Assembly: GCA_029555385.1 (NCBI GenBank)
Contig: JAKPSH010000288.1
Location: 26,718-90,717, forward strand
From: Pseudomonadota bacterium
GTDB taxonomy: Bacteria; Bdellovibrionota_C; UBA2361; SZUA-149
Reading direction: 5' to 3'
DNA: 64,000 nt
A program made the position numbers and the translations under genes. Below, in pieces: positions 13,007-46,973 of this stretch. The number at the start of each line of letters is the position of its first letter. The first letter of the stretch is position 1. The notes beneath the pieces are model-generated. The model made no database searches. It worked only from the letters and a program-made list of their open reading frames with translations, and had not been told where the DNA came from.

Positions 13007-13080
13007 TCGGGGTGAGAGGATTTGAACCTCCGGCCCTCGGTTCCCAAAACCGATGCGCTACCAGGCTGCGCTACACCCCG
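13007..13080 (-). tRNA. tRNA-Pro (anticodon UGG)
   Basis: Reverse complement 'CGGGGTGTAGCGCAGCCTGGTAGCGCATCGGTTTTGGGAACCGAGGGCCGGAGGTTCAAATCCTCTCACCCCGA': 7-bp acceptor stem, D-arm GCGC/GCGC, anticodon loop TT-TGG-GA, T-loop GGTTCAAAT; CCA not encoded. Confidence 0.85.
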
Positions 13081-16741: not shown

Positions 16742-17590
16742 TTAGGCCGCCTTGGTTTTGGCCTTGATGACGGCTGCCGGCTTGCGCTCGCGGCCTGCCA
16801 CGGGCCGGCGGCGGCTGCGGCGGCGCGCACTGGCACTGCGCATATTCGCACTGCGCTCGACAAGGGCCGTTTCGGCTATTGTTTCTTCCTGCTGGTGTTC
16901 CTGCTCTACGGTTCCACCGAGCAGGTCACGCAGCCGGTCGAGAGCTGTCTTCTTTACTCGCGAAATATGGCAGCGGCTATAGCCCAAGGAGCGGGCAATA
17001 TCGACAAGCGGCTCTTCTTCGGAGAACGAACGTCCAACAATCTCTTTTTCCAGCGTATCAAGCTTTGTCACGGCAGCGCGGCATTGATTGATTCTTTCCT
17101 TGCGCAGCAGCTCATGCTCCGGCGTCATAATATCGCGCTGGGTGAAGAGAAAATGGTCCGGAACAAAAGGCGTGTAGCCGCTCGCCGCAAGATACTGCCA
17201 ATCCCCCGTCTCGATGCCGTTGTTTTGCGCATAAGCCATGAACATACTGCTGGCTTGAGCTGCCCTCGTGACGGCACGCACAAGATGTCCTCGCAGATGG
17301 TAAAAAAGGAAAGTCATGAAGGTGGCGCCGTGTTCATCACTGAAGCGCCTTGCCGCTTCACAAAGCGCAAGATCGACGATGCTGTCGATTTCATCTGCCG
17401 GCATCCGTACGCGCCATCTGCGCAGAATGCTTCGCGCAAGCTTGCGTCCGTTTTCGCGGTGACTAAGTATTAGCTGAGCGACCTGCCGCTCATTGGCTTC
17501 AGTGCTCTTCTTTTCGGCTTGTTTCTTTTTGGTCGACTGAGAAACTACTGTTTTCTTGAAAGCAACCGCCCGAACAACCCCCCGTTTCAT
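16742..17590 (-). CDS. Sigma-70-family sigma factor, group 3 (FliA/sigma-28-like), with Lys-rich N-terminus and Arg-rich C-tail
   Basis: Region 2 'IDSIVDLALCEAARRFSDEHGATFMTFLFYHLRGHLVRAV'; region 4 'EIVGRSFSEEEPLVDIARSLGYSRCHISRVKKTALDRLR'; start set at the ATG preceded by GGAGGA (track start 17650 also possible). Confidence 0.7.
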   Translation of the reverse strand: MKRGVVRAVAFKKTVVSQSTKKKQAEKKSTEANERQVAQLILSHRENGRKLARSILRRWRVRMPADEIDSIVDLALCEAARRFSDEHGATFMTFLFYHLRGHLVRAVTRAAQASSMFMAYAQNNGIETGDWQYLAASGYTPFVPDHFLFTQRDIMTPEHELLRKERINQCRAAVTKLDTLEKEIVGRSFSEEEPLVDIARSLGYSRCHISRVKKTALDRLRDLLGGTVEQEHQQEETIAETALVERSANMRSASARRRSRRRPVAGRERKPAAVIKAKTKAA

Positions 17591-17887
17591 GCTCCTCCAC
17601 CCCCTGGAAAACCCCCAAACGACGGGAAATAACCCGGCTTTGGGCCGCACACTGCATTAATAACCCCACGAAATGTGGTTTATTTGAATTCCACCAACAA
17701 CACTCTCTACTCGATAAAATGAGCAAAATCGCTTCGCTACCGGGATAAGGCCCTGATATTATTGGGCTATCGCCCTCAGTATCTAGATCAGGACAAGAAA
17801 ATAGCTCGAGAAGGATAATTGACGCGCCGACTAACCAGGTAGGACAATTCAACAAAGCGCCACTGTGTTCCGTAGAATGGGGAACTG

Positions 17888-18754
17888 ATGAGCACACCAA
17901 ACGAGTATGCAGCATTTCCAGCGGGAAGCGACGAACTAATCGAAAAGATAGTCGCCGAAAACTTAGGATGGGCTACGAGCATCGCGAAGGCCGTTGCGCG
18001 CGCGTGGAACATGGACTGGCAGCTTGATGGACTGGACGGCGGCGCCTACGAAGCATTGCTGTTTTGCGCCCGGCGCTACGATGCCACCAGAGGCGTGCCG
18101 TTTCGCGGCTACGCCCGCCGCCGTATTCATGAAGCGTGCACGGAAGAAGCTCGCAAGTCCAAGACCTGGCAAATGGGAACCGGCACAAACTCTGAAGTGG
18201 AACAGGAAGCCCGGGAAATTTCGGCCAAGTTATTTGATTTGTTTCCGGAATTACGCGACGGATACCTGCCAATCAGCGAAAGCGAAGACGATGCGGATAT
18301 TACGGTGCGCAGCTCCATTAGACAGATGCTGACGGGAGCGAGCTTAATTGCTGCTTTTCAAAGCTCGCCGAGCGAAAATCCGGAACTGGCCATTGAATAT
18401 AAACAGCTCCTGATTCATTTAGCGCAGCTTGAACCGGTCCACCAAGAAATTATCTGGGCTATTTACTACAAGGGACAGTCCATGCGGGCACTGGCCGAAG
18501 AGTGGCAGATTGATGATTTATCCGTGATTCGCGAGCACAAAGAAATCCTCGCTAATCTCTGCTCGCGCATCGAAGCGCCGAAATCAAGGGCAATCCGCCG
18601 GCTTAAGATCCGCCGCGGCCTGCGCACTATCGCACAGCAGCTTCGCCGGAACAAAGAAGACGGGCCGTTTTCGAAATTTCTCGCCGAAACTGCGGTGCTT
18701 ATTTTTGCACCCCTGGCGGCCCTTTTTGCCTGGCTGGCAAAGCTGATCGTTTAA
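17888..18754 (+). CDS. Sigma-70-family sigma factor, group 3, with C-terminal hydrophobic tail anchor
   Basis: Region 2 'AYEALLFCARRYDATRGVPFRGYARRRIHEA'; region 4 'QEIIWAIYYKGQSMRALAEEWQIDDLSVIREHKEIL'; last 25 aa 'FLAETAVLIFAPLAALFAWLAKLIV' form a predicted TM helix. Confidence 0.7.
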   Translation: MSTPNEYAAFPAGSDELIEKIVAENLGWATSIAKAVARAWNMDWQLDGLDGGAYEALLFCARRYDATRGVPFRGYARRRIHEACTEEARKSKTWQMGTGTNSEVEQEAREISAKLFDLFPELRDGYLPISESEDDADITVRSSIRQMLTGASLIAAFQSSPSENPELAIEYKQLLIHLAQLEPVHQEIIWAIYYKGQSMRALAEEWQIDDLSVIREHKEILANLCSRIEAPKSRAIRRLKIRRGLRTIAQQLRRNKEDGPFSKFLAETAVLIFAPLAALFAWLAKLIV

Positions 18755-18810: not shown

Positions 18811-19137
18811 ATGGTAAGAAAGATAGGTGACAAGCCGGGAGCTGCGGGCACTTCTTCCATTCAGTCGACGCGCAGCATAGAAAGCACCAAGATCGGCGAA
18901 GTCGAGCAGGTCAAAGCTGCTGATAGCCGAAGCGGTGTGGGCGCGGTGCGGCGGTCGACCCGTCAACTAACACCCGAACAACAGCAAGAACTGTTGGCGA
19001 TGATCAACGAAGAAGCTGATCGCATGTTCGACGAAGGGACGCTGCCTAGGTCCAAAAAAGACACCGTAAAAGGCGCCGTGCGCATGGCCATCGAAGCCAG
19101 CATGGTCGAGGAAGAAGAAACGAAAAAGAAAAAATAG
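18811..19137 (+). CDS. Small charged hypothetical protein (108 aa) downstream of the sigma factor gene
   Basis: Strong RBS GGAGGAAG 5 nt upstream of ATG; Ser/Thr-rich N-terminus, acidic helix 'LTPEQQQELLAMINEEADRMFDE', K/E tail. Confidence 0.55.
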   Translation: MVRKIGDKPGAAGTSSIQSTRSIESTKIGEVEQVKAADSRSGVGAVRRSTRQLTPEQQQELLAMINEEADRMFDEGTLPRSKKDTVKGAVRMAIEASMVEEEETKKKK

Positions 19138-19488: not shown

Positions 19489-20595
19489 TTACGCTGCGGC
19501 TCTTAATAACCCCCCAGTCCTCGTCGTCCGTTCAACCAGCGCATAACTCGAGCGTATGACTTCGCGGATTGGTGTGCTGCTGCGCTGCGAGAGCGCGTTA
19601 TAGGCCACGTATGCCAAGACCGCTTCCTGCAGGTGCTCTTCAAGAGAAAGAGAAAGCGTATCATGAAGCCACTTCAGAGCCGACAACGCGGGATTACTCT
19701 CCTCCGGCGCAAACTGCAGGCCGCACAGCGCAAGGAGCAGGATCGCCTGTTCCCGAACGACTGTCCCGGTTTCACGCCGAAACCAAGCTTCGTTCAGCAG
19801 CTCCGCAGCCGCACGTATATCCTGCTGGGTTTCCATGCCCAGATGAAGCAGCCACGGCAGAGCAAAACGCGCCCCTGCTTTGCTGCCAAGAAGCGGGATC
19901 AGCTTACCGGCGTCAGTCGAATCGTCCGGAAACACCGCTCGCATTGCCTGATTAAGCCCCGGGCTCTGACCATGGGAATCTGCCTCGACCACGGATACAC
20001 TTAGCTCGTTCGCGAAACGCGGATTCATCATGCTAACTACGATTCCTGCGCGATTGCGGACCACCTCAACGGAGTGCTTACGTTCTCCCTGCCAATTCGC
20101 TTGCAACAGAATCTGGTCAGGCTGCTCTAACGCCATCTTTAATGCCTCCACGGCAGAGCCGCCAATCGCACAAAGCAAGCGCAAAGCAGGCCAAAACCAG
20201 GTTTCGTGAGGTGAGCTGTCAGTAAGCCAGGTCACAACCGTCCTCGCAGCATCGCCTGCCCCTTGACGGAAGTCATCTGTCGCAAGAAGCTCCGCAGCCA
20301 CGAGCCGCAACTCAGGCACGCAGGGGTGTCGCAGCGCACGCAAAATCAGCGCAATGTCCTCGGCTCCAACCACTTCGGAAGCCGCCTGGCCATGAAGTTG
20401 CACTATCGCTTGCCTAAGCCAGGAGATTGCTTCGTCTGTCGCCCCCCCGGCAATCACGTCAAGCCTTGCACGCGCTTCATCCAGACTACCGGCTTTCGCC
20501 AATCGGCCAAGTTCCTCCATCCCGGCCATGGCGATAAAACTGGCGTCATGACCAATCTGCTGAAAGGCTTTTCTTAGAGAACTCCCTTTGCACAT
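19489..20595 (-). CDS. HEAT/PBS-lyase-like repeat protein
   Basis: Repeated about 30-aa alpha-helical units with 'AA..LG.IG...A...L...L.D' periodicity (e.g. 'ALILRALRHPCVPELRLVAAELLATDD'). Confidence 0.5.
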   Translation of the reverse strand: MCKGSSLRKAFQQIGHDASFIAMAGMEELGRLAKAGSLDEARARLDVIAGGATDEAISWLRQAIVQLHGQAASEVVGAEDIALILRALRHPCVPELRLVAAELLATDDFRQGAGDAARTVVTWLTDSSPHETWFWPALRLLCAIGGSAVEALKMALEQPDQILLQANWQGERKHSVEVVRNRAGIVVSMMNPRFANELSVSVVEADSHGQSPGLNQAMRAVFPDDSTDAGKLIPLLGSKAGARFALPWLLHLGMETQQDIRAAAELLNEAWFRRETGTVVREQAILLLALCGLQFAPEESNPALSALKWLHDTLSLSLEEHLQEAVLAYVAYNALSQRSSTPIREVIRSSYALVERTTRTGGLLRAAA

Positions 20596-21256
20596 GATTC
20601 CTGCTCCTTCTTTAGCAATACTGTGATATTGGAAACAATGGCGACGGCCCTAAAAAGTGCGCGTCGTCCCCTTTATCACCAGCAGATAGTCACTGAGGAT
20701 GAAGGGAATGACGCGTTATTAGAGCAGAGAGAGGATAAGTAAAACCTTTCATGGAACAGCGTCCGCCTGTTCAAGATGATTGCTGGAGCAGACGCACGCG
20801 AAACTACCCAGATTTGCAGAGTATTGGTTCCAGGAAAAGAACGTTAAGATGCTTATACACAGCAATCCATGCTTCCGGCAAGACCAGCTCCCGGCCAATT
20901 ATTATCTGAGCTTCTCTAACCCCCGCGAGATTGCCTCCTATTTAATCGATTAAGTTTAGCGTTATTAAACGTGCGCAATAGCCCTGAGGGTTGGGCGCAG
21001 CGGGAATTCGCCCTGAGAGTCGTTGAATGGCACATATTTTCGGCATCACCTGGGTGAAAACTTAAGTCGCGCATTGGCAGTGCAGAGAATGACGCTGCCG
21101 TGCGCTGAGGGCGCGCAGCAGCAGGTCTTTCAGAACAGATCAAAAACCCGGCACAACCCTTTGCCAACCGTAGCGCGTCGCCCGCATTGATTCGTCGCCA
21201 TTGGTCTGGACTACTGGGCGGGCGACAGCGAAGGGAGGCAAAGGGTTGTGCCGGGT

Positions 21257-21282
21257 AAAAAAGGTCACGCCTTCAGCACCCG
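21257..21282. repeat. Copy A of 26-nt motif AAAAAGG(TCAC)GCCTTCAGCACCCGG, inside a hairpin context (CCGGGT...ACCCGG) and next to a 19-bp inverted repeat (21147-21170 / 21240-21258)
   Basis: Near-identical copy at 61062-61087; both are intergenic. Confidence 0.4.
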
Positions 21283-21347
21283 GAAGCATCGCTCTGGGCG
21301 AAGCCAATGGACTCTGCCGAGGCAAAAACTATTCGCTTATTTTCGGC

Positions 21348-21743
21348 CTAGCGCGCGCGGCGCATGAAGGCGGTCAACAGCTTTTGCACATCATGATCAA
21401 CAACGGCGCCGCTGTTAATGGCACGGGCGACTTCACCAAGCACGGACTGCGCCCGCTGGGCTTCGCCGCTGCCAAAGAACGCCGCACAAAGCGCAAGCTT
21501 GACCTGAATCTCCCAGTCAGCCAACTGCAAAGCAAGGCGAAGCTGCGTGATCGCGTCTTGATATAAACCACGTTCGATTTTGACCAAGGCTAAGCCGATG
21601 CGCGCCGCTGTCTGCCCGTTGTCCACCGCGGCGAGCCCCCCGAAAACACGCTCAGCCGGCGTCAGATAGCCCATTTCGTAGTACATCCGGCCCAGCTCAT
21701 AAATCGCGGTTAACTCTTCTTTTGCGTAATCAGCCATCGCCAC
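21348..21743 (-). CDS. Small TPR-repeat protein (131 aa)
   Basis: Three TPR-like helical pairs ('YELGRMYYEMGYLTPAERVF', 'AARIGLALVKIERGLYQDAITQLRLAL', 'VKLALCAAFFGSGEAQRAQSVL'); size and architecture resemble TPR-type secretion chaperones. Confidence 0.55.
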   Translation of the reverse strand: MAMADYAKEELTAIYELGRMYYEMGYLTPAERVFGGLAAVDNGQTAARIGLALVKIERGLYQDAITQLRLALQLADWEIQVKLALCAAFFGSGEAQRAQSVLGEVARAINSGAVVDHDVQKLLTAFMRRAR

Positions 21744-21755
21744 CGCATCACTGTG

Positions 21756-22052
21756 TCATTGATTATTCCTTGTGCCGATGGACAGCCATTGCACCACTTG
21801 ATTCAACATCGCCTGTTCGCTTGCGAGCTGGGTATTCTGCTCCGGATCGCTCTCTGTCGCCGCAACCAGTTCCTCATATTTGCGCTCGATTCCAGATGCC
21901 AGTTTCGGCAAGTCAGTCAACTCGCCGAGTTTAGGCAGAAGCACGGCAAGGGGCACAACGGAAAGGCGTTCTTTGCTCCTGAGCGGATCTGGCGCGGTGT
22001 CATCACCATCTTGATCAAGGCCGTCCGGCCTGCCTTTCCTATTCCACCACAT
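21756..22052 (-). CDS. Hypothetical acidic protein (98 aa) immediately downstream of truncated flhB
   Basis: ORF only; no FlhB C-domain motifs (no NPTH). Confidence 0.35.
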   Translation of the reverse strand: MWWNRKGRPDGLDQDGDDTAPDPLRSKERLSVVPLAVLLPKLGELTDLPKLASGIERKYEELVAATESDPEQNTQLASEQAMLNQVVQWLSIGTRNNQ

Positions 22053-22061
22053 GACCCATCC

Positions 22062-22940
22062 CTATCTTAGTTTCGATTTCGCCCCCGGCGGCGCTTCTCC
22101 GCGCTCCCGGTGCGCGCTTTTCATTTCCGGGGCTTGGTCGGTCTCCCGGTATTCGGCCTCCAGCTCGGCCCGGCTCATCCGGTGTTCCTGCCGGAAGGCA
22201 AGCCATACCGCAACATAACCGCACACACCGGCAAAGAGGGAGAAAAACAGCGCAGTCTGCCAAACTGACATGAATAAACCTTTCGCCCAATCAAGTCTCG
22301 CACTTAGACTTAAGGCTGTCAAAAACTCTGTATTATCGGACAGCGCCGTGGAGACGACACCATTTCCCGGAGCGTTTCCGCCATCCAGCATCACGGAGCG
22401 TCCCACACCGGCTGCCGGCATTTTCGCAGGAAGAACGGTATACAGCAAAACGCAAGACGCTGCGGCCCAGACAGCGACAACCACGGCACCCGCACCGGCA
22501 GCGAGCAGGCGTTTTCTTGCACCATCCCAGATCCAGCCGCCGGATTTGAAGAAACGCGCCATACCCGGCTGAAAAAGCGCAAAGGAAAACAAGAATTTCG
22601 TCTGTAATGCACCAAGCAACAGCACTATCGCAAAAAACGGCACGACAAACGATAAAACTGTTTTGGCCAAAGCCCGGCTAATTTGCGCAGCACTCAGCGC
22701 TAAAGCCTTTGAGGCTGGTTCGTTTCGCAACCATTCGCTGCCGGATGAAGCGCTCCAAGCATCCCGGGCTAAAGCGGCAATGCTGGCTGCCGCCACAGGC
22801 AAACTGACTATGGCTCCCACAAGCGCGCCCAGCACCACGGCAAAACACATCACCGCTTTGCTGTACGGAACAGTCCCCGAACTGCGCAGCCGCTCTAATT
22901 TAAGCGCCGTAGGCGGAAACCTTTTCATTTCCTCAGCCAT
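22062..22940 (-). CDS. flhB: FlhB/SctU-family export-gate protein, membrane domain only (C-terminal cytoplasmic NPTH domain absent)
   Basis: N-term 'MAEEMKRFPPTALKLERLRSSGTVPYSKAV' matches the FlhB 'EKTE.PT.KKL...R..G.V..SKE' start; 4 TM segments; ends at '...EMKSAHRERGEAPPGAKSKLR*' where the FlhB linker begins; no NPTH in any frame downstream. Confidence 0.65.
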   Translation of the reverse strand: MAEEMKRFPPTALKLERLRSSGTVPYSKAVMCFAVVLGALVGAIVSLPVAAASIAALARDAWSASSGSEWLRNEPASKALALSAAQISRALAKTVLSFVVPFFAIVLLLGALQTKFLFSFALFQPGMARFFKSGGWIWDGARKRLLAAGAGAVVVAVWAAASCVLLYTVLPAKMPAAGVGRSVMLDGGNAPGNGVVSTALSDNTEFLTALSLSARLDWAKGLFMSVWQTALFFSLFAGVCGYVAVWLAFRQEHRMSRAELEAEYRETDQAPEMKSAHRERGEAPPGAKSKLR

Positions 22941-22962
22941 AATCAATTCCCAAGCGAGATAA

Positions 22963-23856
22963 TCATTGCGGCTCCTCGCCCGTGGACGGATGCACATCCG
23001 CAGGCTTCGGCGCCGGAGCCGTCTGAACTTTCATTTGCGCAAGCACGCTGCCCGCGCGTTTCGGCATCAAGGACTCCGAAATGAGCTGTGACAAATCGCC
23101 AGCAATTGAATAAAGACAGAGAGCCAAAACAATCAGCACACACACTGAGCGCACCGCCGCCGCGATATCTGCCTGAAATGCCTGCGCCAAATATCTCTTC
23201 CATGGCAGGTGCACAAAATCAATAATCAGGGCCGCGGCAAACATGGGCAGCGCAAAAACGAAAGCAACGGCCAGAGCCGCTTTGGCGCCGTGCGCGATCA
23301 GCTCCGCCACCTGCGGCGTCACGGCAAATTGCACATAACCCGCCATGCTTTCCAGATACGGAAAAGCAAATAAAGATCGTCCAAAAAATGCCCATAAGAA
23401 AGGAAAATCCGGACTGGCGCAAAGCAGAGCCGCAACGAGCAAAAGCACAACCGTCTCCACCGGCGGCGCGCTTTGTTCCGGAAGTGCCCGGTTCGAGTGT
23501 TTTGCAAAGGTCACTGCGCTGAGCCAGCGGGCAAAAGTCTGGGCAGCATAGCCGGCAAAACCCGCGGCAACCGCGAGAACTAAACCAATTCCGGCCTCAA
23601 CAATCAGCACGCCAGCCCGCGGCATTACTGGCGCCGTTGCGGAGACACGTCCCGCCTCAATCGCCAGTAAAACATCGAACAGCGATAAATCCCGCAAAGC
23701 AGGCACATAGGGGATAAAGAAAACGGTAAAACCAACAGCCAGAACAAAACGCACACTGAGCGGCACTACCCGCCACGGAAGGATACTTAAAGCGCAGAAA
23801 AACACGGAGATGCGCACAGTTAAAGCGACCAGGCAGAGCACGGCAAACGAAGTCAC
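22963..23856 (-). CDS. fliR: Flagellar/T3SS export-gate protein FliR/SctT
   Basis: Six or more TM helices, position between fliQ and flhB, about 297 aa with extended C-tail. Confidence 0.7.
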   Translation of the reverse strand: MTSFAVLCLVALTVRISVFFCALSILPWRVVPLSVRFVLAVGFTVFFIPYVPALRDLSLFDVLLAIEAGRVSATAPVMPRAGVLIVEAGIGLVLAVAAGFAGYAAQTFARWLSAVTFAKHSNRALPEQSAPPVETVVLLLVAALLCASPDFPFLWAFFGRSLFAFPYLESMAGYVQFAVTPQVAELIAHGAKAALAVAFVFALPMFAAALIIDFVHLPWKRYLAQAFQADIAAAVRSVCVLIVLALCLYSIAGDLSQLISESLMPKRAGSVLAQMKVQTAPAPKPADVHPSTGEEPQ

Positions 23857-23877
23857 AAAACAGCTTCCCTCTCTCCC

Positions 23878-24132
23878 TTATTGATAGAGCGAAAGATTGC
23901 CCCACGCACTTGCTGTAAAAGCGAACAACTCTGAGAAAAAACGCCCGAGTGCAAAATACCCCACGAGAAACAGCCCGGCCAGTTTTCCCGTAAAACTAAT
24001 GACCTGGTCGTCGATTTGCGCAGTTACACGCAGCACCGCCGCAACAAGCGCACCGCAAATTACCGCTAAAAGCACCGGAACACTAAGGTGCACTGTGAAG
24101 AGCAGCGCGTTGATTATTTGCGTTGTATCCAT
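23878..24132 (-). CDS. fliQ: Flagellar/T3SS export-gate protein FliQ/SctS
   Basis: 84-aa two-helix hairpin membrane protein 'MDTTQIINALLFTVHLSVPVLLAVICGALVAAVLRVTAQIDDQ' typical of FliQ. Confidence 0.75.
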   Translation of the reverse strand: MDTTQIINALLFTVHLSVPVLLAVICGALVAAVLRVTAQIDDQVISFTGKLAGLFLVGYFALGRFFSELFAFTASAWGNLSLYQ

Positions 24133-24138
24133 CGCCGC

Positions 24139-24846
24139 CTAAAAGTAAGTCGAAACCAGATTGCCTGTGATTAATGTCCAGCCGTCAAGCACGACAAACA
24201 AAAGCAGTTTAAACGGAAACGCCACCATCGCCGGATTCATCCGCTCGAGACCTACCGCAGTAAGCGCCGTCGCCATGAATAAGTCGAGCACGAGGAACGG
24301 CAGGAAAAGAGTCAGCCCCGCAGCAAACGCCTCTTTCAGCTCAGAAACAATGAAGGCGGGACCGAGCACTCGCCACGAGCTGGTCAGCGGCTCAGCCTGA
24401 ACATCTCCCCGCGGCTGCTGAGCCGGCGCGGCTCCCGCGTTTGCCGCGTCAAAACGCCCCGCCAAATCAGCAAACCGCTCGACTGTTTCTTTGTGCGCTT
24501 GCGCGCGCAAAAACGTCTTCCACTTTTCGAGTCCGGCATCAAAGGCTTCCGCGCGGACTTTGTCGGTAACCGGAGTGCCGGCCGCCTTAAGCACGTCATC
24601 AATAGCCCCGGACGAAGCAGCCAGCGTGGGATACATCACAAAGAATGAAAGAGCCAGTGCCAGAGAACCGACCACAAAGGAAGAGGCAAGGCTGCACAAG
24701 CCCAAGCCAAGCCGCAGGATGCTCAGCACTGTGACAATTTTCACATAAGCACTAAAGGCCAAAGCAAGCAGCACCACAAGAAAGATGGTGAAGCCGGACA
24801 GACCTAAGCCTGCAAATACTGATGTTGAGTCCACGCTGCGCCGCAA
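24139..24846 (-). CDS. fliP: Flagellar/T3SS export-gate protein FliP/SctR
   Basis: 'LFLPFLVLDLFMATALTAVGLERMNPAMVAFPFKLLLFVVLDGWTLITGNLVSTY' matches the FliP signature 'IPFLIIDLVIASVLMALGMMMVPP...LPFKLMLFVLVDGWQLLVGSL'. Confidence 0.85.
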   Translation of the reverse strand: MRRSVDSTSVFAGLGLSGFTIFLVVLLALAFSAYVKIVTVLSILRLGLGLCSLASSFVVGSLALALSFFVMYPTLAASSGAIDDVLKAAGTPVTDKVRAEAFDAGLEKWKTFLRAQAHKETVERFADLAGRFDAANAGAAPAQQPRGDVQAEPLTSSWRVLGPAFIVSELKEAFAAGLTLFLPFLVLDLFMATALTAVGLERMNPAMVAFPFKLLLFVVLDGWTLITGNLVSTYF

Positions 24847-24983
24847 TATCCGTTCAAGATTCCCAGAGGGGCCTGTCGCAAAATGCAGCCCCTGCTGACA
24901 GCTTAAAGCCTTAGTCTGTGTTGGACAAGGTAAAGAATCTCCGGCATCAATATAGCAGCAAAATTATCCGGTAAAATGAGCGA

Positions 24984-43838: not shown

Positions 43839-45788
43839 ATGAATAATTCTCTCGATTCAGAATTGCCTTTTGCCGCCGGTACTTTAATTGATAATAGATA
43901 TGAGATCGTCGGCGAGTTGAGCAAAGGCGACCAAGGCACCGTATACGAGGTGCGCGATCAAGCGCTGAACAACGAAACTATCGCGCTCAAAGTGCTGTAT
44001 CCGCATTTAATTGCCGATGCAGCTTTGCTCGCCCGTCTCGGGCATGAGCTGCAATTCGCCCGCCGCCTCGGCCACCCAAATATTGTTTCCGTTTTTGATG
44101 CCGGCGTGGCGGACGATCGCTTCCCCTACGTTACGATGGAGCTTTTCCACGGGGAAAGTCTTGCCGAGCGCCTCCGGCAAGGCCCTCTGCCGCTTGAGGA
44201 TATCCTCCATATTCTTGTGCAGGTCTGTCACGGACTTTCCGCGGCGCACCAGATGGGCATCGTTCATCGCGATTTGCGCCCCGCGCACATCTTGCTGGAC
44301 AGTGAAGACAACGTAAAAATAGGAGGATTTTATCTTGCCCGGCGTTTCCCATTGGAGGCTGGCCTCGATGGCGAGGATTGGATAAAGCAAATACACGCGG
44401 AGTACTATAAGGCACCTGAACAATTTCAATCCGCAATAGTTGATCCGCGCGTAGATATTTATGCTCTAGGCATTATCGCGTTTGAGATGCTCTCCGGTGA
44501 AAAACCCTTTGTCTCTACAGATTCCGTCAGACTTGCGGAAATGCATTTCTCAGAACCGCTGCCTAAGCTTGCGCCGCTGCGCCATGATGTCCCGCCCTGG
44601 CTGGAGAAGCTGGTCCAAAAATGCGCCAACAAGAATCCCGATCAACGCTGCCCGGGCGCAGACGCAGTCTTATCCGTCCTCTATGAAAACGCGCCGGAGT
44701 TCTTTTCGGAAGCAACGCAGCTTAGTAATTTTGTGCTCGCCCGTTCTGTTTCGCCTCCGGTTCCTTTTTTATCACACTTTGCCTGGCTGAGCCGGTTTCT
44801 TGCTTTGGCCGTTCTTTGCGGCATCGTTTTCTTGGCGGTGCGCACCGCGTGGTACCAGTCGGTACCCATGGAAGAAAAACATGTGGCGGTCGAGGAAGAG
44901 CCTCCTCTTCTGGAACCAAAATCAGCCGGGTCCCCTTCACCGAACCTCGCAGATCAAGACGGCATTACGCCGCTGATGTGGGCAAGCGAAAAAGGGGACA
45001 TCGATATGCTCAGTGTCTTGCTGGTTCAAGGCGTCAAGCTTGATGAACAGGACAATAAAGGCTGGACTGCTTTAATCTATGCTGCCGGACAAGGACAGCT
45101 TACAACAGCAGAAAAACTCCTGGCCTCAGGCGCCGCGGTTGATGCACGCGATAAAAACGGCGCTGCCGCGCTGCATCATGCAGCAGCACGCGGCGCGTTA
45201 GATGTTGCTTCATTGCTCCTCAAACACGGAGCCGATATTAACGCTGTCGATAACGATGGGCAGACGGCGCTGATTTATGCCGTTAAGCGCCACAATCCGG
45301 CCCTAATTACCTTGCTGCTCGACAACAAAGCGAGGCTGGACATCTACGACAAGGACGCGCGCAGCGTGTTTTTCTACGCCGATAAAGACGAGCTGCGGCA
45401 GTTGAGCAACCGGGCAGTTGCCAAATCAGACCCTGAAAGCAAAGTCAAAAGAGTTGGACTCCCCACAACGCCAAATCAACCGCAGTTGAATTACCCAAAG
45501 CGAACGCGGCTGCGCGCTGGAGTTCCGCGAGGAGTCTGGGAAGAACGAGGTCCTGCCGGTGCGGTACTTCTCTCGTGCAAAGTCGAAGTGTTGAATGCCG
45601 GTGAAACAGATGCGCACGATGTCAAAGTCTCGGTTGTCACCCCGCTTGGACAAATCGTTGATTTACCGGGACCGGAAACATTGCCCAAGAATTCCCGGGC
45701 CGAATATTCAAACGAAAACATCGAAGTATTCGCACCAACCAAAGGCAGACTCTCTGTCCGATCCGATTGCGCCAACTGCCGCAAGTGA
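43839..45788 (+). CDS. Ser/Thr-kinase-like protein (probable pseudokinase) - TM helix - ankyrin-repeat domain
   Basis: Kinase fold with 'IALK', 'HRDLRPAHILLD' (Lys->Arg, Asn->His), 'IGGF' in place of DFG, 'YKAPEQF'; TM 'FAWLSRFLALAVLCGIVFLAV'; at least 4 ankyrin repeats ('DGITPLMWASEKGDIDMLSVLLVQGVKLD...'). Confidence 0.8.
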   Translation: MNNSLDSELPFAAGTLIDNRYEIVGELSKGDQGTVYEVRDQALNNETIALKVLYPHLIADAALLARLGHELQFARRLGHPNIVSVFDAGVADDRFPYVTMELFHGESLAERLRQGPLPLEDILHILVQVCHGLSAAHQMGIVHRDLRPAHILLDSEDNVKIGGFYLARRFPLEAGLDGEDWIKQIHAEYYKAPEQFQSAIVDPRVDIYALGIIAFEMLSGEKPFVSTDSVRLAEMHFSEPLPKLAPLRHDVPPWLEKLVQKCANKNPDQRCPGADAVLSVLYENAPEFFSEATQLSNFVLARSVSPPVPFLSHFAWLSRFLALAVLCGIVFLAVRTAWYQSVPMEEKHVAVEEEPPLLEPKSAGSPSPNLADQDGITPLMWASEKGDIDMLSVLLVQGVKLDEQDNKGWTALIYAAGQGQLTTAEKLLASGAAVDARDKNGAAALHHAAARGALDVASLLLKHGADINAVDNDGQTALIYAVKRHNPALITLLLDNKARLDIYDKDARSVFFYADKDELRQLSNRAVAKSDPESKVKRVGLPTTPNQPQLNYPKRTRLRAGVPRGVWEERGPAGAVLLSCKVEVLNAGETDAHDVKVSVVTPLGQIVDLPGPETLPKNSRAEYSNENIEVFAPTKGRLSVRSDCANCRK

Positions 45789-45935: not shown

Positions 45936-46973
45936 ATGGGAAATAAATTTTCGGCCCTTCAAACACAAATCTTCTCAACACAGGCATTAAATGAAATCCA
46001 AGAAGCCCTGCATGAGCTGCATGAGGAATCAAAAGATTTAGGGTTCGGCCCGGATATCACACAGCACGTCAATCAGAGACTCTTGAACAAGGATGGCTCT
46101 TTTAATGTGCGCCGCGAAGGATACAACTTGTTTCGATCGCGCAGCATTTATCACGCACTGCTTAACTCAAAGTGGCAGCATTTTTTTGCTATTATCTTTT
46201 GCGCTTATATTGTGATCAACTTTTTTTTTGCTGCTTTGTTTTTTGCTCTTGGGCCAGAAGCTCTAGCCGGATCTGACGCGACGGGCTTGGCGCTTTTTTT
46301 TGATTGTTTCTTTTTCAGCGTCCAAACTTTTTCGACGGTCGGTTACGAAAAATTGCATCCGATAAGTTTGACGGCGAATTTCTTGGTTACACTCCAGTCA
46401 TTGGTCGGACTGCTTGGTTTTGCCCTGGCGACTGGATTGCTTTTTACCCGCTTTTCCCGGCCAAGCTCAAAAGTAATCTTCAGCAAGTTTGCGCTTATTG
46501 CACCGCAGCAAGACGGACTTGCCTTTGAATTCCGCGCAGTCAACGCAAGACCGAACATGCTGCTGCACTTGGAAGCTCGTGTAGTAATGAGCCGGCTGGA
46601 ACGGCAAGGCGGCTGCGTGCGGCGCAAGTTCTACGATTTAGAGCTCGAACGCCGGCAAATTATGTTCTTTCCGCTGCACTGGACGATCGTCCACCCGATT
46701 GATCAAGACAGTCCCCTGTGCGGAGCAACCAGGGAAGAACTTGCCCAATCCGATGCAGAATTCCTGGTCATGCTCAGCGGCATGGACGATACTTTTTGGC
46801 AGACAGTCTACACATGGACCTCTTATAAGCACAACGAGATCGTTTGGGGCGGCGCGTTTGACAACATTTTAGAGACATGTCCGGACGGCAGCGTTAAGAT
46901 AAACTTGGACCGTGTGCATGAATTCCACCGCGTAGAAATCGCTCCGGCGCTCAAAGCAGCCAATAGCTCATGA
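45936..46973 (+). CDS. Inward-rectifier-type (KirBac-like) potassium channel with atypical filter TVGYE
   Basis: N-term 'RLLNKDGSFNVRREGYNLFRSRSIYHALLNSKWQHFF', pore 'FFFSVQTFSTVGYEKLHP', cytoplasmic Ig-like C-domain; codon usage markedly AT-richer than neighbours. Confidence 0.8.
   Translation: MGNKFSALQTQIFSTQALNEIQEALHELHEESKDLGFGPDITQHVNQRLLNKDGSFNVRREGYNLFRSRSIYHALLNSKWQHFFAIIFCAYIVINFFFAALFFALGPEALAGSDATGLALFFDCFFFSVQTFSTVGYEKLHPISLTANFLVTLQSLVGLLGFALATGLLFTRFSRPSSKVIFSKFALIAPQQDGLAFEFRAVNARPNMLLHLEARVVMSRLERQGGCVRRKFYDLELERRQIMFFPLHWTIVHPIDQDSPLCGATREELAQSDAEFLVMLSGMDDTFWQTVYTWTSYKHNEIVWGGAFDNILETCPDGSVKINLDRVHEFHRVEIAPALKAANSS

Follow-up and report, generated by a model that had tools for sequence, protein, structure and literature searches.

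Non-flagellar type III secretion systems (NF-T3SS) are built on a core of nine genes, encoding SctC, J, N, Q, R, S, T, U and V (Abby & Rocha 2012, PMC3459982). The T3SS* of Myxococcus xanthus (mxan_2434-2464) consists of a sorting platform plus export apparatus, with secretin, needle and translocon all missing; the Tad-like Kil system recruits it to where prey is contacted, and prey lysis depends on it (PMC12075869). It belongs to the basal 'Myxo' lineage of NF-T3SS (Abby & Rocha 2012, PMC3459982), and the co-occurrence of Kil and T3SS* is apparently restricted to Cystobacterineae (2025 review, PMC12428579). Here we describe a cluster of export-gate genes in a 64,000-nt stretch of metagenomic DNA (contig JAKPSH010000288.1 of assembly GCA_029555385.1; hereafter the window), for which this needleless T3SS* with Kil is the closest described system.

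We interpret the cluster, with considerable though not full confidence, as the gate operon of a split, non-flagellar, probably needleless T3SS-like system carried by an uncultured member of the Oligoflexia, known from digesters and activated sludge, and probably acting with a Tad pilus in contact-dependent antagonism. The system is typical of uncultured Oligoflexia/Bdellovibrionota. It resembles the Myxococcus T3SS* in its T3SS-like inner-membrane export apparatus and sorting platform, in a locus without secretin, needle and translocon, in the FHA-domain proteins and Ser/Thr kinases of its neighbourhood, and in its occurrence in predatory (former) deltaproteobacteria. The Myxococcus system is functionally tied to a Tad/Flp pilus, and in relatives of the window a gene linkage to Tad/Flp is seen; the nearest SctR matches outside the clade include Myxococcota SctR, in a ranked list rather than a phylogeny. 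The two differ in that the Tad/Flp genes of the relatives share one array with sctV, whereas they occupy separate loci in Myxococcus; in that no SctN was seen in the clade loci, whereas the Myxococcus T3SS* has one; in the FliA-like sigma pair conserved beside the operon; and in the host phylum, here Bdellovibrionota/Oligoflexia. The family-wide lack of the SctU switch domain may be a further difference.

The interest of the system lies in this family-wide loss of the switch domain, in the linkage to Tad genes, and in a T3SS*/Kil theme beyond the myxobacteria. In open-access text we found described neither a naturally switch-less SctU nor a needleless T3SS/Tad pairing in Bdellovibrionota. This pairing, so far known experimentally only from Myxococcus, would be extended beyond one myxobacterial suborder, and the shared array of the relatives makes the proposed physical and functional coupling of T3SS and Tad directly testable.

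Gate operon and the short SctU

The four contiguous minus-strand genes that the initial annotation had read as fliP-fliQ-fliR-flhB were recovered at the positions it gave (Table 1), and their products are the membrane core of a T3SS export gate. All four Pfam families were matched, those of SctR, SctS and SctT above the gathering scores, and hydropathy analysis gave 4, 2, 6 and 4 transmembrane (TM) segments for SctR, SctS, SctT and SctU, respectively. SctT is the most divergent gate subunit, with ~29% identity to its relatives. An identical SctS protein is encoded by seven metagenome contigs and by an NCBI metagenome-assembled genome (MAG; HQH27399.1). Across the clade, residues ~190-200 of SctR read VGLER[ML] by eye, a stretch that we presume to align with the Met-rich loop of FliP/SctR.

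The gate genes head a compact operon of six genes (sctR-sctS-sctT-sctU(short)-p98-TPR; minus strand, 21348-24846) with intergenic gaps of 6, 21, 22, 9 and 12 nt, its own conserved promoter-like motif and a terminator hairpin, features that together define sctR-S-T-U-p98-TPR as the transcription unit. The promoter-like motif, CTTGTCCAA-N13-TTTAAGCT, reads TTGTCC-N17-TAAGCT; it has a single exact match within the window and recurs, with its spacing unchanged, upstream of sctR in four related loci (L009, L012, L019 and L020); it may act as the sctR promoter. A search upstream of sctR for a sigma-28-type promoter (TAAA-N15-GCCGATAA) gave no convincing match. The terminator-like hairpin is an inverted repeat with 29-nt arms, a minimum free energy of -73.9 kcal/mol and a z-score of -7.4 against shuffled sequences; it lies 90-200 nt past the stop codon of the TPR gene and is followed by UUUUUGAUC.

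Right behind the stop codon of pepF stands a second element, TCGCTC(G)ATTTTAC(C)GGATA, which another locus (L011, 9855-9890) also has upstream of sctR; its CGGATA core by itself is no more frequent than chance. A recurring CGGATA[AGC] motif, found at the frequency expected by chance (0.3-0.8 per kb), was dropped as a candidate. The hairpin itself stands in 752 nt devoid of a credible open reading frame (ORF), between the TPR gene and a 368-aa ORF, and an Rfam scan of this gap returned only chance miRNA matches.

Table 1. Positions of the features discussed in the text, counted from the first letter of the window.
Feature	Position	Strand	Description or evidence
sctR (FliP/SctR family)	24139-24846	-	Pfam FliP 8e-45; probably 231 aa from GTG at 24834
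sctS (FliQ/SctS family)	23878-24132	-	84 aa, 2 TM; Pfam Bac_export_3 6e-8
sctT (FliR/SctT family)	22963-23856	-	297 aa, 6 TM; Pfam Bac_export_1 3e-8
short sctU (FlhB/SctU)	22062-22940 (open frame 22062-22997)	-	292 aa; Pfam Bac_export_2 4e-20
p98	21756-22052	-	Small acidic protein; conserved after sctU in 7 related loci
TPR protein	21348-21743	-	131 aa, T3SS-chaperone size; Pfam TPR_19
Promoter-like bipartite motif CTTGTCCAA-N13-TTTAAGCT	24900-24929	-	pepF-sctR intergenic region
Second shared upstream element	24945-24975	-	Just after pepF stop
GC-rich hairpin + U-run	21140-21256	-	Likely intrinsic terminator of the sctR-TPR operon
Gap without credible ORF	20596-21347		752 nt; holds the terminator-like hairpin (21146-21256)
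368-aa ORF (p368)	19489-20595	-	NCBI MAG HQH26605.1, PLP17_04340, annotated hypothetical
p108	18811-19137	+	Small conserved protein directly after sig288
sig288	17888-18754	+	Divergent FliA-like sigma-family protein; PLP17_04350 in NCBI MAG
sig302	16742-17650	-	FliA/sigma-28-like, regions 2 and 4; Pfam Sigma70_r4 6e-8 + r2
tRNA gene	13007-13080	-	Adjoins Ham1-like gene
Ser/Thr protein kinase	43839-45788	+	Fused to ankyrin repeats
Inward-rectifier-type K+ channel	45936-46973	+	IRK + IRK_C domains

From its conserved start (ATG at 22940, MAEEMKRFPP...) SctU consists only of the 4-TM domain and the linker helix, its Bac_export_2 match covering profile positions ~3-236 of ~340 and its C-terminus lying just past the MSRAELEAEYRE linker. 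Aligned to full-length homologues, it stops where the NPTH autocleavage domain would begin, ~25 residues before the NPTH position, and the NP[TES]H motif is absent from every reading frame of the window and of 15 related loci. The initial description of this gene as an FlhB membrane domain only was therefore accurate, and it extends to the whole family: a HMMER search of 1.84 billion representative proteins returned 126 relatives, 117 of them no longer than 300 aa, and SctU measures 251-292 aa in all of the related loci. The nine relatives of at least 330 aa, most of them with NPTH, were all recovered only at E-values above 1e-7. With 117 of the 126 relatives short, the truncation is a stable family trait rather than decay, and more than 100 clusters (50% identity) of SctU without the autocleaving switch domain amount to a natural experiment on the purpose of that domain.

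Partner genes in related loci and in the same genome bin

The SctR proteins closest to that of the window group into a separate clade comprising ~73 clusters (90% identity), whose scores run from 478 down to 154 bits before those of Myxococcota SctR and others at 123; the named members of the clade are Bdellovibrionota, Bdellovibrionales and 'Deltaproteobacteria' MAGs. We compared the window with ~20 related loci from Bdellovibrionota MAGs, namely five SctR-clade members (L007-L012) and 14 from species-representative genomes (L015-L028), each with flanks of ~10 kb; the genome of the window was not among these representatives. Upstream of the gate genes the relatives carry an array encoding a TadZ/CpaE-like protein, Flp pilin(s), CpaB, the CpaF/TadA ATPase, TadB, TadC, SctV, a kinase, SctD1, SctD2, SctJ, p80, p160 and SctQ; after a short gap past SctQ there follow SctR-S-T-U(short)-p95-TPR and, beyond the TPR gene, p108 and a 288-aa sigma-like gene on the opposite strand, a ~300-aa sigma factor, a PMT_2 glycosyltransferase, DUF4124, RNase PH and Ham1.

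Several of these products are T3SS basal-body components. SctJ has a YscJ match of 82 bits, and the SctD-like proteins match Yop-YscD_cpl/FHA, SctD1 having two FHA domains and a YscD-like domain and SctD2 a zinc ribbon and an FHA domain. The kinase (~840 aa) combines a kinase domain with HEAT repeats. p160 has weak FliJ/YscO Pfam matches (E = 0.006-0.03), which would make it SctO/FliJ-like, and its profile found no significant relatives among PDB sequences. p80, a protein of 77-96 aa encoded between sctJ and p160 (L007, 7834-8067, and homologues), has a mean identity of 64%, well above its neighbours; it matched no family, and its sequence loosely resembles FliG N-terminal/ARM-like repeats.

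Genes for Flp pilin, CpaB, CpaF, TadB and TadC lie directly upstream of sctV in six loci (L016, L018, L021, L023, L025 and L028), CpaB scores above its NCBIfam cut-off, and the Flp pilins carry a G/ATMxEYAL motif. The pilin genes stand between the TadZ-like gene and cpaB, with four in tandem in one locus (L016, 2894-3718) and one in another (L025, 1462-1647).

Within flanks of ~10 kb, every related locus holds T3SS basal-body genes without genes for needle, translocon or secretin, and neither SctN-type ATPase nor ruler genes were found in them. In ~640 kb of related-locus sequence we found no SctN and no SctC, and the sole Walker-A ATPase is CpaF-like. Genes for FliO, a FliF-type membrane-supramembrane ring, rod, hook, motor or filament were found neither in the window nor in the ~20 related loci (>300 kb).

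The sequences of the gate proteins are themselves almost neutral between flagellum and injectisome. The comparison of flagellar with injectisome profiles suggested with the initial annotation gave nearly equal scores, neither side clearing its cut-offs: in NCBIfam, SctR scored 144 bits with the SctR subfamily model, 132 with yscR and 129 with fliP, all below cut-off, and the gate proteins also fell under the SctR/S/U injectisome equivalog cut-offs. Against solved structures SctR scored about equally with FliP (107 bits) and SpaP (93 bits). The SctV of the relatives behaved similarly (hrcV 483 vs FlhA 467 bits, both below cut-off). Such near-equidistance of SctR and SctV, together with injectisome-like rings and FliA-like sigma factors, makes the system a useful witness to the transition from flagellum to injectisome.

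An ordinary flagellated Bdellovibrionota bacterium, in which the cluster is one of several dispersed, FliA-controlled fliPQR-flhB operons, would account for the names FliQ and FliR assigned by the NCBI pipeline, for the slight lead of solved FliP over SpaP as a match to SctR, and for an adjacent sigma factor that is closest to FliA; moreover, many Bdellovibrionota are flagellated. The likeness to the flagellar gate FliPQR-FlhB (Salmonella, PDB 6F2D/6R69/6S3L) is also real, extending to the four protein families, TM topologies, gene order and a FliA-like sigma factor nearby. We nevertheless regard a flagellar operon as very improbable, since no FliO and no flagellar structural context accompany the gate here or in the related loci, and the flagellar equivalog cut-offs are missed widely (fliP 129 vs 217, fliQ 29 vs 89, flhB 46 vs 349). 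An FlhB without its C-terminal NPTH domain would, in addition, not support hook-to-filament switching (PMC7064499). The operons of the relatives instead adjoin a YscJ/SctJ-type lipoprotein ring, two FHA/YscD-like proteins, SctQ and SctV, and their TPR protein is SycD-like. The initial identification as an export gate stands, while a flagellar type is not supported by the gene context. In MAGs of this kind, annotation names such as FliQ, FliR or 'switch protein' would mislead readers into assuming flagellar genes or a gate without partners.

Another alternative is a classical injectisome directed at eukaryotic hosts, whose genes for needle, secretin, translocon and ATPase would stand at additional loci, as they do in Chlamydiae. 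Like the Ysc/Psc injectisomes (YscRSTU, SycD/PcrH, YscX-YscY), the present system combines the SctRSTU gate families with a ~130-aa TPR chaperone-like protein, resembling class II translocator chaperones, beside a small helical protein with a disordered N-terminus, and it has SctJ and SctD partners, and probably SctQ, in its genome bin. The window encodes a eukaryote-like ankyrin Ser/Thr kinase and an inward-rectifier-type K+ channel, and scattered loci are known for the NF-T3SS of Chlamydiales, whose core genes a single genome carries at several unlinked places (PMC3459982). As injectisomes, however, the chlamydial systems are complete, having a secretin, a needle, an ATPase and an SctU of full length, whereas genes for needle, ruler, gatekeeper, translocator, secretin and SctN were not found nearby here, the ATPase of the related loci being CpaF-like only. 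The short SctU is without the domain for the needle-to-translocator switch, scores fall under the SctR/S/U cut-offs, and the consistent linkage is to Tad/Flp pilus genes. A classical injectisome therefore seems unlikely to us.

Partner genes matching those of the related arrays were found outside the window. A motif scan of metagenomes returned a contig (L029) encoding the C-terminus of SctD1, SctD2 and SctJ, whose nearest relative, like that of the window, is L009. The SctD2 of this contig also occurs on a 4.85-kb contig (L059) with the order sctD1'-sctD2-sctJ-p80-p160-sctQ' (sctQ partial), again closest to L009, and a third contig (L060) belongs to the same group carrying genes of the other half. 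L059 comes from the Joint Genome Institute (JGI) sample 3300010345, which was also the source of a window-identical contig (L001); the next-closest SctR (P0002) comes from a different sample. Compared with seven reference genomes, the L059 proteins show identities within 1-2 residual standard deviations of the values that the window SctR predicts. Tetranucleotide composition was tried as a further link and rejected as non-discriminating: L059 correlated with the window at r = 0.888, against 0.90-0.955 for the window's own segments, but another organism (L009) reached 0.906.

By exact-sequence look-up, proteins of both halves were traced to separate contigs of a single NCBI bin, entitled 'MAG TPA: Oligoflexia bacterium' and bearing PLP17_ locus tags. 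This bin holds FliQ (HQH27399.1), FliR (HQH27398.1), SctU (HQH27397.1) and Zwf (HQH27331.1) of the window, and SctD2 (HQH26839.1), SctJ (HQH26838.1, PLP17_05525), p80 (PLP17_13920) and p160 (PLP17_13915) of the other half. Better-assembled copies are two NCBI contigs, one of 67,721 bp for the other half and one of 98,460 bp for the window half, which presumably belong to one assembly. Given the limits of the window, the other half would have to lie >19 kb away if on one side and >39 kb away if on the other. Since the exact proteins of both halves occur in one bin, the cluster is one half of a split system and not the orphan gate that the initial annotation had proposed: this bin holds at least sctD2, sctJ, p80 and p160, on contigs other than that of the gate genes. 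The partners that it had allowed for elsewhere in the genome do exist, in injectisome-like rather than flagellar form. Of the nine genes in the NF-T3SS core, those beyond SctRSTU are represented by SctJ in the same MAG, by the partial SctQ on L059 and by SctV in relatives only. Homologues sought with the C-terminal part of SctV amounted to five fragments, all of them from an unrelated sample.

The alternative of a true orphan or relic, that is, a minimal gate left after loss of a T3SS and now decaying or repurposed as a stand-alone membrane channel, would explain why no partner gene lies within 64 kb. We found no other T3SS or flagellar gene in the window and, as first reported, no flhA, fliO, fliI/H/J, rod/hook/filament or needle genes. 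It would also fit the position upstream of sctR, where pepF stands in place of the sctV-sctQ block of the relatives, sctQ being the gene expected next to sctR. Orphan gate genes do seem to exist: a Myxococcota MAG carries a lone SctR homologue (L064, 10001-10672; P0075, the closest Myxococcota SctR), whose flanks of 10 kb each hold neither sctS/T/U nor any further T3SS gene. The pepF-sctR junction is also spanned by an independent JGI contig (L003) and is thus not an assembly artefact.

Yet all six genes of the operon are intact and tightly spaced, with promoter-like motif and terminator, and its MAG and metagenome also contain partner genes whose phylogenetic distance fits. The sequence is stable, six contigs (L001-L006) from several digester and sludge metagenomes being 99.9-100% identical to the window. 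Other clade members are comparably split. In L021 (14943-16235) and L028 (16696-17986) sctQ is followed by unrelated genes and no sctR, the genes being glyoxalase-like in the former and encoding a methyltransferase and a non-ribosomal peptide synthetase-like protein in the latter; the array therefore breaks recurrently at the sctQ/sctR point. In the relatives, sctR often has its own promoter region apart from sctQ, sometimes with inserted genes. On this evidence we give the relic explanation little weight.

Sigma factors, chaperone and a proposed mechanism

Two divergently oriented sigma-like genes and the small gene p108 lie beyond the operon. Both sigma-like proteins belong to the sigma-70 family and have FliA as their best solved relative, in agreement with their initial naming as FliA-type factors. 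The family profile of sig302 found only FliA as its best PDB matches (1rp3, 3e-8; 9wsf, 1e-6; 6pmi, 6e-6); in NCBIfam the protein was above the cut-off of the sigma70 superfamily and reached 40 bits with FliA_WhiG (cut-off 190), and its core is near-invariant across relatives. sig288 is more divergent, with scores below cut-off for both sigma70-ECF (33 bits) and FliA_WhiG (27 bits) and a weak profile match to FliA (1.4e-3). It is nevertheless the best-conserved gene of the neighbourhood, with 63-77% identity in relatives. Hydropathy predicts a C-terminal TM tail at residues 261-284, so that sig288 may be a membrane-tethered sigma-like factor; a hydrophobic tail is present in the relatives, its sequence not being conserved. 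p108 occupies the same position in five related loci (L007, L008, L010, L019 and L020) with 35-45% identity, matches no protein family or PDB entry, and is possibly a sigma partner or an anti-sigma factor providing a FlgM-like check. The early suggestion of an unusual secretion apparatus was right in this respect: the apparatus is non-canonical and has FliA-like sigma factors of its own.

The last two genes of the operon may encode a chaperone and its partner. The 131-aa TPR protein, already noted for having the size of a secretion chaperone, matched LcrH_SycD (1e-9; 38 bits vs a cut-off of 105) and SctY (2e-5) in NCBIfam, both below cut-off, and its family profile aligned over its full length with PcrH (3e-4), AcrH (5e-4) and SycD (4e-3); its identity to the proteins of the relatives is 46-54%. 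The adjoining gene encodes p98, whose reported acidity is borne out by a pI of 4.6. This protein of 98 aa shares the motif RLA.MPLA.LLP ... E.SML.Q.LQWL with its counterparts in seven related loci, and neither Pfam nor PDB searches, including its family profile against PDB sequences, found relatives. A single-sequence AlphaFold2 model of low confidence (pLDDT 59) gives ~34 disordered N-terminal residues followed by two or three helices. We consider p98 a candidate chaperoned substrate or gate regulator, and p98 and the TPR protein would then form a substrate (or gate-regulator)-chaperone pair.

Taken as a working model, SctR5S4T1 and one short SctU would nucleate a gate inside SctJ/SctD rings, with SctV and SctQ encoded elsewhere. 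Because SctU is without the autocleaving domain and genes for needle, ruler, secretin and translocon are missing, a single substrate class would probably be exported without a needle-length switch. A small substrate or gate regulator, p98, may be held by the SycD-like TPR chaperone, and expression would be controlled by one or both of the FliA-like sigma factors, with p108 and the tethering of sig288 to the membrane as possible checks. The machine would probably work with a Tad pilus in contact-dependent attack on other cells, a proposal made by analogy with the Myxococcus T3SS*/Kil and from the Tad/Flp linkage in relatives.

A bolder extension is that the clade encodes a true hybrid, in which a T3SS-like inner-membrane export apparatus has lost the SctU switch domain along with its ATPase, needle and secretin, and shares assembly and use with the Tad/Flp pilus of the same array. 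The pilus and CpaF/TadBC would supply the outer conduit, perhaps also energy or targeting, for exported toxins, and expression would be coupled to secretion through the FliA-like sigma pair and a small exported partner. We regard this as a tentative and rather doubtful proposal. If true, it would define a T3SS lineage distinct from flagella and injectisomes and would provide genetic proof of the Kil/T3SS* coupling proposed in Myxococcus.

Several points weigh against the interpretation as a split, needleless, Tad-associated system. The two halves are linked by metagenomic binning and co-occurrence rather than in a closed genome. sctV, a complete sctQ and the Tad genes were seen in relatives and not in the organism of the window, where sctN was not seen either. 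The description of the system as free of needle, secretin and ATPase covers ~10 kb on each side of the loci, and such genes could be elsewhere. The near-equal scores of SctR and SctV with flagellar and injectisome models mean that 'non-flagellar' is an assignment by gene context, not by sequence. The roles suggested for p98, p108 and sig288 follow from position, size and conservation, and the predatory function from analogy.

Neighbourhood of the operon

From Ham1 (13111) to sctR the window retains the gene order of the relatives, which takes in PMT_2, the two sigma genes, p108, the TPR gene and p98, whereas the RNase PH gene that stands between DUF4124 and Ham1 in the relatives was not seen there in the window. 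Within this segment, the 368-aa ORF had been described as a HEAT-repeat protein of the cluster, a reading that found no backing: Pfam gave no HEAT match even at E<=5 (best match BTAD, E=0.023), comparison with the HEAT-bearing kinase family of the related loci gave an hhalign probability of 0.05%, marking the two as unrelated, and a single-sequence AlphaFold2 model was helical with low confidence (pLDDT 44). The ORF lies 752 nt beyond the TPR gene, past the strong terminator hairpin, and has no homologue in any of the related loci, which places it outside the conserved cluster, as a lineage-specific insertion.

The rest of the window carries housekeeping genes, including the his operon, tal-zwf-opcA, pepF, lptD/F/G, rml/gmd and addAB-like genes. 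The ankyrin-repeat Ser/Thr kinase and the K+ channel (Table 1), both unusual for bacteria, may hint at a life in association with a host or with prey. A single tRNA gene, beside the Ham1-like gene, is the sole RNA gene found in the window.

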